A DNA stretch of 64,000 bases from Planctomycetota bacterium (GCA_027021385.1 JALUUL010000008.1:87469-151468), one strand, 5' to 3'; shown: positions 50,087 through 61,142, counted from the stretch's first letter. Program-made: numbers and translations. The notes: generated by a model from the sequence alone, not told the origin.

Positions 50087-50598
50087 GTCCCCCCCTCTCC
50101 GCCGAGGGCGAAGACGATGCGGGCGACGATCCTGGATCTCGGAATCCACCCCTCCGTCCGGGAATCGGGCACATCCGGGCTTCGGTTCTCGTGGAGGAGG
50201 AGATAGCGCCCTTCGGGAACGACCTCCCCGTCCCAGGCCCCGGGAAGCTCGAATCCCGGAGGGATCGAGAGGCGTCCACGGTCCTTCGTTTCGACCCACC
50301 ACCGCCCCTCCGCGCGAAGGATCCGGTCGCCGGGAACGGCGCGCACCCTTGCGAAGTAGAGGGCCCCCTCGAGGGACCAGGCGACGATCCATCCCCGCAG
50401 GAGGCGCTGCGGGGGATCCCGATCGACGAGGTGGCGACCGCCCCGGTGGAGATAGGGTTCCATCGCCCGGACCGAATCCCCCTCGAGGACGAGGAAGCCG
50501 TAGCGCCTTCCGACGGACAGGTAGAGGACCCCGAGGAGGAGGAGGACGACGGCCCAACGTCCCTTCCGGATCGCGCGGAGCAGGTCACCCGCCCTCAT
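50083..50598 (-). CDS. S26 (signal peptidase I)-like protein, apparently lacking the Ser/Lys dyad
   Basis: ATG 50598 overlaps the thiE stop (ATGA). TM WAVVLLLLGVLYLSV. YFARVRAVPGDRI versus canonical YIKRAVGLPGD. ENRSPDVPDSRTEGWIP versus GDNRxxSxDSRxWGxVP. RAMEPYL versus GSMMPTL. Confidence 0.5.
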   Translation of the reverse strand: MRAGDLLRAIRKGRWAVVLLLLGVLYLSVGRRYGFLVLEGDSVRAMEPYLHRGGRHLVDRDPPQRLLRGWIVAWSLEGALYFARVRAVPGDRILRAEGRWWVETKDRGRLSIPPGFELPGAWDGEVVPEGRYLLLHENRSPDVPDSRTEGWIPRSRIVARIVFALGGEGGT

Positions 50599-51227
50599 CC
50601 GAGCGCCTCCAGATAGGCGGCCGTGGCCTCGCCCGGGTCCTCGGCCTCCCCGATCCCCGAGAGCACGGCGACCCCCCGGGCGCCGGCCTCGAGCAGGGTC
50701 CGGCAATGCTCCGGACGGACGCCCCCCAGGGCGAAGACCGGGATCTCCGCGCGCGCCGCGAGCCTCTCGAAGGCCCGGATTCCGAGCGGGGGCCGCGCGG
50801 AGGGTTTCCGGACCCGGAAGACCGGGGACAGGAGGAGGAAATCCGCGCCCTCCTCCTCCGCCCGGGCGCATTCCTCCGCGTCGTGGACCGAGACCCCGAT
50901 CCAGGCGCCGGAACCGAGCAGGCTCCGCGCTTCCCGGACCCCGAGGGACCCCCCGCCCAACTGGACCCCGTCCGCCCCGGCGACCCGCGCGACGTCGATC
51001 CTGTCGTTGACGAGACAGAGCCCCCCACGGGGCCGGAGGAGGTCCCGGACCGCCGGAAGGAAGTCCCGGAGTTCCCGCGCGGACGCCCCCTTCTCCCGGC
51101 ACTGGAAGCCCCGCAGGCCGGCCTGGACGCAGGCCGAAAGCCGCGCGAGGAGCCCGGGACCGACCCCCTTTCCCGGACTGATCCAGAAGAGGCGCGGAAG
51201 GCGGCCTCGCTGTCCGCGTTCCCTCAT
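50595..51227 (-). CDS. thiE: Thiamine-phosphate synthase ThiE
   Basis: FQCREKG, LVNDRIDVARVAGADGVQLG, GVSVHD, ADFLLLSPVF, IPVFALGGV. Confidence 0.85.
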   Translation of the reverse strand: MRERGQRGRLPRLFWISPGKGVGPGLLARLSACVQAGLRGFQCREKGASARELRDFLPAVRDLLRPRGGLCLVNDRIDVARVAGADGVQLGGGSLGVREARSLLGSGAWIGVSVHDAEECARAEEEGADFLLLSPVFRVRKPSARPPLGIRAFERLAARAEIPVFALGGVRPEHCRTLLEAGARGVAVLSGIGEAEDPGEATAAYLEALG

Positions 51228-51246
51228 ACGGGCATCCTACCCCGGG

Positions 51247-53391
51247 TCAGTTCCGATCTTCGGAGCTGGAGGACTCCGGGGGGCGACCGCTCTCGAGGTG
51301 GAAGCCCAGATCCCTCACGAGTCTCCGGAACTCGTCTCGCGACACCCGGTCTCCAAACTCCATCTCCCGAGCTCCGAGTCGTTCTCCGCAGAGTTCCCGG
51401 ACCCGGCTGTTCGCGCAGAGGGCGTCCATGACCTCCCGCCTCCGGGTCCGCAAGCGTCCGTCCTCTCCGAGGTAGAGGATCCCGGCGCGGTCCCCCCAGT
51501 CCCGAATGCTGAATCGCACGTTCTGCGGGAGCGGCGTCCTGCAGCGCTCGCTCAGGACGCGGAGGATCTCGCCGAGGGTCATGCCGTCCGCGAGGGCGGA
51601 CCGCACGCTCTCCTCGGAGAGCTGGAAGCGGAACACCCGGTCCGAACTCCGTCTCCGGCTGAACCGATCGAGGGTGTGAACGAGTTCGAAGGCGTCCGCC
51701 TCGGGGAAGAGGAGGATCTCGAAGTCGGGATTCACGACGAGGGTCGAACGGGCCCCCTCCGCCCCCTGGGCGGGCTGGGTCGCGAGGAGGGAGGACCCGA
51801 GGTCCGAGAGCCGCAACGCGACCGGCATGCCCCCTTCGTCGAATCCGAGATCCACGATTCCGAGGAGGTGAAGCCTGTGGCGCACCCAATGGAAGAGGTG
51901 CCAGGACATCTGCACGAGGTCCTCGTAGCGGAGGTAACGGCCCTGCGCCTTCGCGGCGGCGAACCATTCGGCGACTCCGAGCGCGTCCAGCTGGCTCAGG
52001 TAGGTGTTCCGCGCGAGGTGGGGAAGGTACATCGCGTCGTACCATCTCCCCGGTTCGATTCGGCGGAGGAGCCGGAGGAGGATGCGCCGGAGATGGGTCT
52101 GGTGGAACGGATCCCCCCCCAGATCGGGATCCTCGACCGCGAAGGCGAGAAGGTCGCGCAGCTTGTCCGGCAGGGCGAGGGCCTCGAAGGATCGTCCCTT
52201 CGCCCCCAGGCGGAAGGTCCGTTCCCCGCTGCGGTCGATCCACCTCCGCTGCCTGCAGAAGCGGAAGATGAAACGGAAGATCCCCTCGGGGTCCTCACCG
52301 CCCTCGACCGTGACGAGCCGGGACTGGATGCGCTTCTGCGTCGCCTTGAAGACCTCCCCTTTGACCGTGTAGCGGACCCCGTTTTCATCGACGTAGCGCA
52401 GGAAGCGCATGACGTTCGTCGCGAGGTCCACCCCGGCGACGACCTCCTTCGCCGGGATCCTCTCCCCCTCGGAGGCGCGCCGGCGGAGGAGGGCCAGCGT
52501 GATCTCCTGGAAGAGGATCAGGGTCGGTTCGGCCAGATCGATGCCATAGGCCCGGAGATCCAGATTCCTCCAGGTCCCGGTCAGGGATTCCTCGAGCCGC
52601 TTTCCGAGTTCCGGACCGAGAAGGGCTCCTTCCTCCGGGTCGAGGGCCCGCTCCGCCAGGGTCCTCGGGAGAAGACCGCCGAAACGGTAGGCGGTCGTCT
52701 CGACGAGACACCGGTCCTCCGCGGCGAGACGCCGGAGCCGCCCGCGGATCGCCCCCGGCATCAGGAAGAGCTTGTAGGCCTGCCGCGCGTGCCGCGCCGA
52801 TTTCTCGCGGGTCTCCTCGTCCCCATCCCCCCGCCGGGTCTTGCGGAAATGGCGATCCCCGAGGAAGGCCTTCAGGGTCAGGGGGCCGGCTTCGGCCGGC
52901 CCCTCCCCTTCCCGCTCGGACCCGCCGGGGGAACGAAGGAGTTCCTGGAGCGGGGTCACGAGTTCGCGGCCGAGCCCCCAGGCCGGGCGGCGATACCGGT
53001 CCCAACGATCGTCCTCCAGCGGGAACACGAGCCCCATGTCCGCGAGTTCCTCGAGACGCGCCTCGAGCGCCTGCTGCGGGACCCCCCTCTCCGCGGCCGA
53101 GCGAAGGAGCTGCTCGTGGGTCCTTACCCCGTCCGGGCTCGCGACGAACTCCTTCAAGAGATCCTTACAGAACGGATCCATGCCCTCGAGACGCCGGGCG
53201 AGACGGTCCGGGTCGCACATCGACCCGATCAGGCGTTCGATGCCGTCCTTCGAGGGGGGACTCCGTTCCGGAATCCACCGTTCGTGCAGGGATTCGATAC
53301 GGGCCTGCAGAAGCCCCGACAGGAATTCCTTCAAGCTGATGCCGTTCAACTCGCCTCCCCCCGGTCCGCGGCCTCGCTTTCGGTCTCCCAT
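51247..53391 (-). CDS. XPB-associated protein (about 714 aa) with C-terminal XPB-N-terminal-domain-like module
   Basis: Reading frame is clean from ATG 53391 (or TTG 53349, overlapping the xpb stop). The C-terminal ~165 aa (51250-51750) parallel the N-terminus of the adjacent XPB helicase. The upstream 600 codons of tracked ORF 51247..55194 are shadow-frame junk. Confidence 0.65.
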   Translation of the reverse strand: MGDRKRGRGPGGGELNGISLKEFLSGLLQARIESLHERWIPERSPPSKDGIERLIGSMCDPDRLARRLEGMDPFCKDLLKEFVASPDGVRTHEQLLRSAAERGVPQQALEARLEELADMGLVFPLEDDRWDRYRRPAWGLGRELVTPLQELLRSPGGSEREGEGPAEAGPLTLKAFLGDRHFRKTRRGDGDEETREKSARHARQAYKLFLMPGAIRGRLRRLAAEDRCLVETTAYRFGGLLPRTLAERALDPEEGALLGPELGKRLEESLTGTWRNLDLRAYGIDLAEPTLILFQEITLALLRRRASEGERIPAKEVVAGVDLATNVMRFLRYVDENGVRYTVKGEVFKATQKRIQSRLVTVEGGEDPEGIFRFIFRFCRQRRWIDRSGERTFRLGAKGRSFEALALPDKLRDLLAFAVEDPDLGGDPFHQTHLRRILLRLLRRIEPGRWYDAMYLPHLARNTYLSQLDALGVAEWFAAAKAQGRYLRYEDLVQMSWHLFHWVRHRLHLLGIVDLGFDEGGMPVALRLSDLGSSLLATQPAQGAEGARSTLVVNPDFEILLFPEADAFELVHTLDRFSRRRSSDRVFRFQLSEESVRSALADGMTLGEILRVLSERCRTPLPQNVRFSIRDWGDRAGILYLGEDGRLRTRRREVMDALCANSRVRELCGERLGAREMEFGDRVSRDEFRRLVRDLGFHLESGRPPESSSSEDRN

Positions 53392-55076
53392 TCGCGGATC
53401 TCGTAGCCGTACCCCTGCTCGGCGAGGAAGCGCTGCCTCTTCGCCGCGAATTCCTGGTCCTTCGTGCCGGCCGTCACCAGGGCGTAGAAGGTCGCCCCGC
53501 CCCCGCCGGCCTTGGGGCGAAGGATGCGGCCCAACCTCTGCGCCTCTTCCTGCCTCGAACCGAAAGTGCCCGAGACCTGGATCGCGACGTTCGCGTCCGG
53601 CAGATCGATTGCGAAGTTCCCGACCTTCGAAACGGCGAGAACGGGAATCTCCCGGTTTCGGAAAGCCGTGTAGAGGCGCTCCCTCTCGGCCGTCGGAGTC
53701 CTCCCCGTGATCAGGGGCAGGGCGAAACGCGAGGCGAGTTCCCGAAGCTGATCCAAGTACTGGCCGAGGATCAGGACCTGGTCCCCCTCGTGTTCCTCCA
53801 GGAGACGGGCAACGACCGAGAGCTTCGCGGGATTCGCACCCGCGGCCTTCACCGCGAGTCGCGGGGTCATCTCGAGATAGGCGACCCTCGACGCGGGGGG
53901 CAGGGGCACACGGATCTCGATGCAGCGCGCCGCCGCGATCCAACCCTGCTCCTCGAGTTCCTTCCAGGGAACGTCGTAGCGCTTCGGTCCGATCAAGCTG
54001 AAGACATCGTCCTCCTTCCCGTCCTCCCGGATGAGCGTCGCGGTCAGACCCAGCCGGCGGCGGGCCTGGATCTCGGCGGTCGCCCGGAAGACCGGCGCCG
54101 GGAGGAGATGCACCTCGTCGTAGATGATCAGACCCCAGTCCCCGTCCTCGAAGAGGGAGAAATGCTCGAAGGCCCCGTCCTTGCTCCGGCGCCAGGTCAA
54201 GATCTGATAGGTCGCGACCGTGACAGGAGCCACTTCCTTGCGGTCTCCGGTGTACTCCCCGACCTCGGTCTCCGAGAGGAGGGTCTTGTCGAGGAGTTCC
54301 CGCCGCCACTGGCGGACCGCGACGGTGTTCGTCGTCAGGATCAACGTACGGACCTTGAGGAGGTCCATGACCGCGAGGCCGACGATCGTCTTGCCCGCGC
54401 CGCAGGGAAGGACCAGGACCCCGCTTCCTCCCCGGACCGATCCCCCGGCATGGAAGACGCGGGCGGCTTCGGCCTGGTAGCGCCTCAGGCGGAACGGGGA
54501 GCCGGAGCGCGTCCGCTCCCGGAGGCCGAAGCCCGGAAGGGGCGATCCCCGGCGGTATCCGGCGAGATCCTCGACCGGGTAGCCGAGCTTGATCAAAGCC
54601 TGCTTGAGCCGCCCTCGGTCCCCCTCCTCGATCAGGAAGGAGCCGCCGGGTCCGTCCCGGAGGAGCGGGGCCACGCTCCCCGCCGACGCGAGTTCCCCGA
54701 GGACCTCGGAATCCGCGCCCTCGAGGAGGAGTCGGTCGTCCTTCCGAACGAGCCGCAGGAGGCCGTAGCGCCGATACCAGTCCCGGATCCGCTCCAGGAG
54801 GACCCCCGGCACCGGGAAGCGGCTCCCCCGCTCCAGGCCCTCTTCGAGGTCCTCGAGCCGAAGCCCCGCCGCGGCCGCGTTCCAGACCGAGATCGGGCCG
54901 ACCCGGTAGAAATGCACGTGCTCGGGCGCCTTCTCGAGTTCGGCGAAGAGGGCGAGGAAATCCCGGGCCTCCTCGTAGCCCTCCTGGTCCACCTCGAGAA
55001 GGATCGTTCCGTCCCCCTGGACGATCATCGAGCCGGGACGAAGCTCCTTGCCGGGGTTGTGGATCCTTGCTTCCAA
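53346..55076 (-). CDS. XPB/Ssl2(ERCC3)-family SF2 DNA helicase
   Basis: Motif I VLPCGAGKT, motif II IIYDEVHLL, motif III GLTATL followed by the XPB-specific RED motif (TLIREDG), motif VI GSRQEEAQRLGRILR. TTG start at 55076. Alternative ATG 55028 (MIVQGDGT). Confidence 0.85.
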   Translation of the reverse strand: MEARIHNPGKELRPGSMIVQGDGTILLEVDQEGYEEARDFLALFAELEKAPEHVHFYRVGPISVWNAAAAGLRLEDLEEGLERGSRFPVPGVLLERIRDWYRRYGLLRLVRKDDRLLLEGADSEVLGELASAGSVAPLLRDGPGGSFLIEEGDRGRLKQALIKLGYPVEDLAGYRRGSPLPGFGLRERTRSGSPFRLRRYQAEAARVFHAGGSVRGGSGVLVLPCGAGKTIVGLAVMDLLKVRTLILTTNTVAVRQWRRELLDKTLLSETEVGEYTGDRKEVAPVTVATYQILTWRRSKDGAFEHFSLFEDGDWGLIIYDEVHLLPAPVFRATAEIQARRRLGLTATLIREDGKEDDVFSLIGPKRYDVPWKELEEQGWIAAARCIEIRVPLPPASRVAYLEMTPRLAVKAAGANPAKLSVVARLLEEHEGDQVLILGQYLDQLRELASRFALPLITGRTPTAERERLYTAFRNREIPVLAVSKVGNFAIDLPDANVAIQVSGTFGSRQEEAQRLGRILRPKAGGGGATFYALVTAGTKDQEFAAKRQRFLAEQGYGYEIREWETESEAADRGEAS

Positions 55077-55278
55077 GAGTCGGGAGGGGTGTTGACGGCC
55101 CCCCCGGGAGGGGGCGGAGGGCGGGAAAGCGCCCGGATCGCGCCGTCAGAAAAGCGAAGCATTCTACCCCTGGAACCGGGGAACGGACCAGCACCGCCTC
55201 GAGGGGGCGCCGGACCGTCCCGGGCCATCTTTCCGGCTTCCCCGAATGGGCCTTGACAAGGGGACGAAGGGGACCGAC

Positions 55279-61095
<5,817 letters not shown>

Positions 61096-61142
61096 CGCCC
61101 CTCCATAGGGCCCTCCGCCGCTCCGGGTCAACGCCGGGCTTG

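Follow-up and report, generated by a model that had tools for sequence, protein, structure and literature searches.

The 64,000-nucleotide stretch analysed here, called the window below (JALUUL010000008.1:87469-151468, assembly GCA_027021385.1), belongs to a Planctomycetota metagenome-assembled genome of 3.69 Mb that is 93 % complete. We studied two overlapping genes on its minus strand. One is xpb, which codes for an XPB helicase, and the other is the gene that follows it, whose product we call the partner and describe as a probable p52-like protein, after the p52/Tfb2 subunit of eukaryotic transcription factor IIH (TFIIH). The coordinates of both genes, their domains and their neighbours are collected in Table 1.

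Table 1. Features of the xpb-partner locus, in positions of the window.
Feature	Position	Strand	Basis or remark
xpb, 560 aa	53346-55028	-	ATG 55028, TGA 53346-53348; NF045503, TIGR00603, Pfam
XPB N-terminal domain (NTD), residues 1-122, XPB-NTD / p52-clutch fold family	54663-55028	-	PF13625; homology to partner C-terminus
XPB motif I, GAGKT	54387-54401	-	translation
XPB motif II, DEVH	54108-54119	-	translation
XPB motif III and RED, TATLIREDG	54018-54044	-	translation
TTGA stop/start overlap of xpb and partner gene, GGGGGAGG 6 nt upstream	53346-53349	-
Partner gene, 700 aa, p52/Tfb2-like (probable)	51247-53349	-	gene caller; AlphaFold2 model; Foldseek PDB matches
Partner residues 1-520, array of ~4 winged-helix-like units	51790-53349	-	model secondary structure, Foldseek
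Partner residues 537-658, clutch-like domain, XPB NTD paralogue	51376-51741	-	PF13625, HHalign, Foldseek
Partner residues 659-700, end of beta-beta-alpha-beta element and disordered tail	51250-51375	-	model
Tandem-double uvrA, 1950 aa, 250 bp upstream of xpb	55279-61131	-	NF001503, TIGR00630, two stretches each
thiE, 19 bp after partner stop	50595-51227	-	PF02581, E 1.7e-44
uvrA-xpb spacer with -10-like GGTAGAAT, ~135 nt ahead of xpb ATG	55029-55278	-

The helicase is a canonical bacterial XPB that carries the NTD. It scored 812 bits against the NCBIfam equivalog model NF045503 ('DNA repair helicase XPB'; cut-off 610), with model positions 1-544 of 548 aligned, and 343 bits against TIGR00603. 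Pfam recognised PF13625 over residues 1-122 (E 1.2e-31) as well as ResIII, Helicase_C and ERCC3_RAD25_C. The motifs named in the original prediction are all present in the translation, namely motifs I (GAGKT) and II (DEVH) of helicase superfamily 2 and the XPB-specific RED motif, then given as TLIREDG and read here within TATLIREDG. The gene had been drawn from a TTG at 55076; because the NCBIfam model aligns from residue 1, we moved the start to the ATG at 55028. The window copy is single, and there is no second XPB in the genome.

The xpb frame ends in ...GCG AGT TGA, and the partner frame opens with the TTG at 53349-53347, which gives a TTGA stop/start overlap. A Shine-Dalgarno sequence, GGGGGAGG, lies 6 nt 5′ of this TTG, and an independent gene call returned a partner of 700 aa, the same as from the TTG start. 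The overlap of the partner gene with the xpb stop codon had been noticed before, and it holds. The numbering that went with it (714 aa from an ATG at 53391) was replaced: no Shine-Dalgarno sequence is found ahead of that ATG, and the 700-aa frame is preferred. Read from the sequence, xpb and the partner gene are translationally coupled. Relatives of the partner are named 'helicase-associated domain-containing protein' or 'hypothetical protein' in RefSeq.

The last ~165 residues of the partner and the first ~155 of XPB are homologous stretches. PF13625, which covers the XPB NTD, also matched the partner (E ~2e-16), and a pairwise BLASTP comparison of the partner C-terminal with the XPB N-terminal segment gave E 1e-5. 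For HHalign, two profiles of 40 sequences each were built from related loci, one for the partner C-terminus and the other for the XPB N-terminus; they aligned with a probability of 99.1 % (E 6.6e-19, 129 columns). Partner residues 556-686 are paired there with XPB residues 21-153. The colinearity therefore extends past the Pfam domain and reaches ...DLGFHLE on the partner side and ...KLGYPVE on the XPB side, right ahead of the helicase core. The three methods agree with the earlier claim that the end of the partner is colinear with the helicase N-terminus, and the aligned stretch is ~30 residues longer than the one first proposed. The similarity is significant both by HHalign and by Foldseek. 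In a tree of the domain across five phyla, the XPB-NTD group is separate from the partner clutch group, with 97/99 support. The split is clean; the duplication is old and not a local copy.

The structural comparison gave the same picture. The last 180 residues of the partner were modelled separately with AlphaFold2 (predicted local distance difference test score, pLDDT, 86.5), and the model was compared by Foldseek with the chains of the PDB. The 37 best matches were only XPB-NTD and p52/Tfb2 chains (E 1.8e-7, 2.6e-7), in keeping with the kinship to XPB's NTD and to the clutch domain of p52 that had been proposed for this segment; the next match beyond them had E > 0.1. Chain 6trs_A aligned with a root-mean-square deviation (rmsd) of 2.3 Å over 96 columns. 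After the clutch comes a small beta-beta-alpha-beta element (...DLGFHLE), whose strands start from about residue 654 and which is a possible equivalent of the p52 C-terminal domain that binds p8. The p52 alignments (~162 columns) extend into it, and HHalign also aligns it with XPB residues ~123-153.

Beyond this point the partners differ from one phylum to another. In Paenibacillus (L086:6697-8670), Deinococcus (L085:7075-9492) and Actinomyces (L087:2556-5099, minus strand) the partner extends 160-290 residues past the clutch-like domain, and in Planctomycetota and cyanobacteria this domain lies near the C-terminal end. The C-terminus of the family is therefore variable. Two other Planctomycetota (G028:C8:73161-73952 and G029:C151:7223-7936) have two tandem PF13625 matches in one partner frame of ~700 aa.

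The whole partner was modelled from a 25-sequence alignment (mean pLDDT 85.7; predicted template modelling score, pTM, 0.57). The model is made up of ~4 helical bundles, each closing with a beta-hairpin (residues 109-125, 258-279, 371-381 and 499-514), the clutch-like domain with its core at 536-634 and the small beta-beta-alpha-beta element. With this model as the query against 350,542 PDB chains, Foldseek ranks 1-18 were all p52/Tfb2 chains of TFIIH (E 2.9e-11 to 5e-6, 330-570 columns), and the aligned columns cover these chains almost entirely. The best match was 8ebu_D (E 2.9e-11, 555 columns); 6nmi_D, 7o4i_2 and the 6trs p52-p8 crystal were also among them. Chain identities were established by sequence search (8ebt_D is TFIIH subunit 4, 7o4i_2 is TFB2). 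XPB chains rank after p52/Tfb2, with ~170 columns and E about 2e-5.

It is worth stressing that, when the C-terminus alone is replaced by the full-length query, the E values for the same p52 chains improve by 2-4 orders of magnitude, and those for the XPB chains become worse. The N-terminal array therefore adds real p52-like similarity. As the 18 best fold matches are all p52/Tfb2, we read the N-terminal ~520 residues of the model as a p52-like winged-helix array. The original prediction had described the N-terminal ~550 aa as being of unknown function; their fold can now be given such a reading. The analogy with p52 itself came out stronger than proposed, in that the whole partner, and not just its last domain, best matches p52/Tfb2 in the PDB. 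A nuclease fold, which had been considered for the N-terminal part, was not found there. This part has no Pfam, NCBIfam or PADLOC family match, and the significant matches of the partner in these three collections and in Foldseek include no nuclease or other enzymatic family or fold.

Several observations weigh against reading the pair as a bacterial XPB-p52. Neither of the Pfam models PF03849 (Tfb2) and PF18307 (Tfb2_C) matched the partner or anything in the genome, and PF03849 touches only 3 of 25 partner family members, at E of at least 0.1. Foldseek TM-scores of the partner against p52 are 0.13-0.33, with an rmsd of 14-25 Å; they are low because the relative positions of the domains differ, and the match is therefore domain-by-domain and not rigid. 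Winged-helix arrays are common, and an RNA polymerase III subunit also matches the partner (E 2.8e-3). In sequence, the clutch-like domain resembles XPB NTDs more closely than it does the clutch of p52: in a search of PDB sequences, the partner profile matched the human XPB NTD with E 3.2e-5, Tfb2 with 0.08, p52 with 0.5 and one unrelated chain with 0.65. A Pfam Tfb5 search of the genome revealed no p8/Tfb5-like gene, and the other TFIIH core partners of p52 (p34, p62) are not known in bacteria (PMC3353954). The sequence is present in one public run only, a hydrothermal-vent metagenome of DNA, and in no RNA run. Binding between XPB and the partner, together with its function, is something that we infer by analogy with TFIIH structures. 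Since the Pfam Tfb2 models fail, the p52 assignment rests on the fold and the clutch domain. On the strength of the models, we consider it probable that the partner is p52-like, a remote homologue of p52 outside the Pfam Tfb2 family.

A p8-like third subunit was also sought close to the pair, where no small open reading frame (ORF) lies between xpb and the partner gene. A hidden Markov model of the partner tail had a sole match among the genome ORFs of at least 40 aa, an ORF on contig C37; it was rejected because it has the composition of a non-coding frame in DNA rich in GC. On three Deinococcus plasmids (L085:6731-7078, L090:7738-8037 and L093:9735-10064) a hypothetical protein of 99-115 aa is encoded between xpb and the partner. 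Two of these three proteins were compared and share 59 % identity over 68 residues. The Deinococcus protein is a candidate third subunit, perhaps p8-like. The genome studied here has nothing that corresponds to the small ORFs adjoining the partner in Deinococcus and Actinomyces.

To see how widely the arrangement is kept, we scanned a genome collection and confirmed 271 relatives of the partner. The best 80 of these 271 are all from Planctomycetota. In 77 of these 80 loci the gene directly upstream, on the same strand, is xpb, and this holds for every one of the 66 where the flanking DNA suffices. Of the 77 loci, 70 have a start codon in frame with the partner that shares 4 nt or 1 nt with the xpb stop (NTGA-type or 1-nt overlap).

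Co-occurrence was studied in 151 Planctomycetota genomes, evenly drawn. No PF13625 match was found in 81 of them and two or more in 66; 55 genomes have a pair of matches on one strand at a spacing of 2.7-4.3 kb, and most of the exceptions are split over short contigs. Planctomycetota genomes thus nearly always carry both PF13625 copies or neither. In an XPB-less genome of the same order (G109:C10:1045082-1051338), a double uvrA is followed directly by a thiE-like gene, and the xpb pair is therefore absent as a unit. This relative looks as though the pair had been excised or never inserted.

The pair is found outside this phylum as well. Twelve XPB loci of Actinomycetota, Cyanobacteriota, Deinococcota and Bacillota were taken from a plasmid collection, and all twelve have a large PF13625 partner within 5 kb. 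The partner gene is downstream of xpb and overlapping in Paenibacillus, immediately upstream in Arthrobacter, Gloeocapsopsis and Acaryochloris, and downstream beyond a ~100-aa ORF in the three Deinococcus loci. In Actinomyces it is divergent from xpb, past a 99-aa ORF, and in Tsukamurella, Nocardia and Nonomuraea it lies 3.5-4.7 kb away. The original prediction had left it to a survey whether bacterial xpb genes regularly carry this neighbour; as it turns out, synteny is kept in five phyla. With a limit of E <= 1e-30, a profile search of 1.84 billion cluster representatives yielded 214 proteins, and with E <= 1e-10 it yielded 1916; the larger set probably includes XPBs that are caught through the common domain. 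The NTD-clutch duplication occurs in at least five phyla of bacteria; either it is older than their divergence or it spread among them as a pair.

The genes around the pair hint at DNA repair. The UvrA encoded upstream consists of two complete UvrA units in one chain and is the sole uvrA of the genome. Among the related loci, uvrA is found upstream of xpb in 59, and thiE downstream of the partner in ~70, so that thiE is conserved just as well. In this genome the single-copy pair stands between uvrA and thiE/thiL/tsaE, an order that is conserved across the phylum, and thiE is probably co-transcribed with the partner gene. A consensus scan of positions 50400-55500 revealed no sigma-70-type promoter and no terminator-like site. 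The genes uvrB and uvrC are adjacent on contig C4. We asked whether XPB could stand in place of UvrB, which is ruled out by this uvrB-uvrC pair elsewhere in the genome; as the pair is complete, XPB would add to UvrABC repair and not replace it. Among 20 XPB-less Planctomycetota genomes, ~15 have a UvrA of single length and ~5 a double one. Double UvrA may thus be associated with the xpb pair, as far as raw genome counts that ignore kinship can tell.

The closest known system is the XPB-p52(-p8) part of TFIIH (human ERCC3/GTF2H4/GTF2H5; yeast Ssl2/Tfb2/Tfb5; PDB 6NMI, 8EBU, 7O4I, 6TRS). As in TFIIH, an XPB with an NTD goes with a partner made of winged-helix domains, then an XPB-NTD homologue and then a small C-terminal element. 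Residues 306-399 of human p52 fold like the XPB NTD and dock onto it by way of beta-sheets; the resulting dimer is pseudo-symmetric and recruits XPB, and along with the dimer of the p52 C-terminal domain and p8 it cradles RecA2 in human TFIIH (PMC6422496). The differences are that the bacterial genes form an operon with predicted translational coupling, that the partner has 700 aa against 462 in p52, that no p8/Tfb5 homologue was detected and Pfam Tfb2 and Tfb2_C do not match, and that there is no p34, p44, p62 or XPD context (no search for p34 or p62 was made).

The archaeal XPB-Bax1 module is similar in that it, too, is prokaryotic and consists of two genes, one for XPB and one for a dedicated partner. 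Bax1, however, is an XPG-related nuclease and makes contact with XPB at the thumb and HD2, while the bacterial partner shows no nuclease fold and has a paralogue of the NTD instead. In the plasmid collection, haloarchaeal XPB-like genes annotated as 'DEAD/DEAH box helicase' (matches H14-H30) align only from query residue 103-141, so those helicases lack the NTD that the bacterial partner mirrors.

Among bacterial proteins, the XPBs of Mycobacterium tuberculosis (Rv0861c) and Kineococcus fall under the same NCBIfam equivalog and share the NTD and the helicase core with the window XPB. Both were studied as single proteins, with no p52 homologue or partner known in bacteria (PMC3353954). The same M. 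tuberculosis study of 2012 reported that p52 homologues were not found in bacteria; on its own, XPB had to be in large molar excess to unwind DNA, and the authors did not exclude an unknown partner (PMC3353954). Actinomycetota related to these two organisms carry a PF13625 partner nearby, which in Mycobacteriales is not always adjacent. Our literature search yielded no paper that describes p52 homologues from bacteria or says what PF13625 partners do, and the sole paper naming Helicase_C_3 lists a transposon mutant without a function. The XPB-p52 module itself is known from TFIIH; here it would take a bacterial, two-gene, p8-less form beside a double uvrA.

Taken together, it seems likely to us that the pair is a two-subunit DNA motor that corresponds, in bacteria, to the XPB-p52 sub-module of eukaryotic TFIIH. 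The clutch domain of the partner would pair with the XPB NTD through beta-sheets, giving a pseudo-symmetric heterodimer that may keep the helicase lobes in a productive geometry. The partner might then stimulate or gate the DNA-dependent ATPase and the double-strand translocase of XPB, and its winged-helix array could anchor the motor on DNA or on another machine. Such stimulation, if it occurs, would explain why M. tuberculosis XPB alone unwinds only at large molar excess. Its task in the cell would most likely be to repair DNA or to rescue DNA transactions that are blocked, beside a complete UvrABC.

A bolder idea, which we regard as possible and rather doubtful, is that the XPB-p52 pairing is an ancient prokaryotic two-subunit machine, that the bottom lobe of TFIIH descended from a bacterial motor or was exchanged with it, and that in Planctomycetota this motor works with UvrA. 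The conserved order of a double-length uvrA, xpb and the p52-like gene suggests that a lesion or block located by UvrA might be opened by an XPB-type translocase, besides UvrB.

The partner could instead be an independent winged-helix DNA-binding protein or regulator with an inherited domain, or both PF13625 domains could bind a common third component or DNA structure, the operon then reflecting no more than membership of one pathway. Strict coupling is not universal, since in Mycobacteriales and Streptosporangiales records the two genes are separated by 3.5-4.7 kb or lie on different strands, and single members of the partner family match the winged-helix regulator families HTH_IclR and Trans_reg_C weakly. 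An independent protein would leave unexplained, however, why 70 of 77 loci preserve the stop/start overlap, why the Planctomycetota show a both-or-neither distribution and why it is p52 in particular, with its XPB-binding homologous domain, that gives the best fold matches; we hold such a protein to be clearly unlikely. It is very improbable, too, that the pair serves anti-phage defence or a mobile element and is no housekeeping repair factor. The helicase core of XPB does match the PADLOC PbeA helicase weakly (E 5e-19, core only), the cyanobacterial pair is found on plasmids next to toxin-antitoxin, transposase and integrase genes, and presence in Planctomycetota is patchy (70 of 151 genomes). 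The partner, on the other hand, is without any PADLOC model match, and the pair is single-copy in the conserved uvrA/thiE context, with no mobile-element genes beside it within the window.

About as improbable is the reading in which the pair acts as helicase and nuclease in the manner of archaeal XPB-Bax1, a cryptic nuclease being hidden in the N-terminal 520 residues of the partner. It would fit the two-gene XPB operon, which archaea also have (PMC7293015, PMC7672443), and several invariant polar residues of that part (D308, N312, R315, E376, R377 and H416); Foldseek gave a weak match to the nicking endonuclease 5liq_B (E 0.079, probability 0.66). Against these stand the searches of Pfam, NCBIfam and PADLOC, which returned no nuclease family, and the significant fold matches, none of which is a nuclease. 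Bax1, moreover, binds the thumb and HD2 regions of XPB and not an NTD, according to a review, and the haloarchaeal XPB-like helicases have no NTD.

The two-subunit motor that we favour bears on a question that has been open since the first biochemical papers, namely the role of XPB in bacteria, whose function a 2026 review still calls elusive (PMC13024598). A conserved and apparently coupled p52-like partner would be directly relevant to it. The finding also bears on the origin of TFIIH, in that the NTD-clutch duplication which recruits XPB in eukaryotes is found in bacteria as well.

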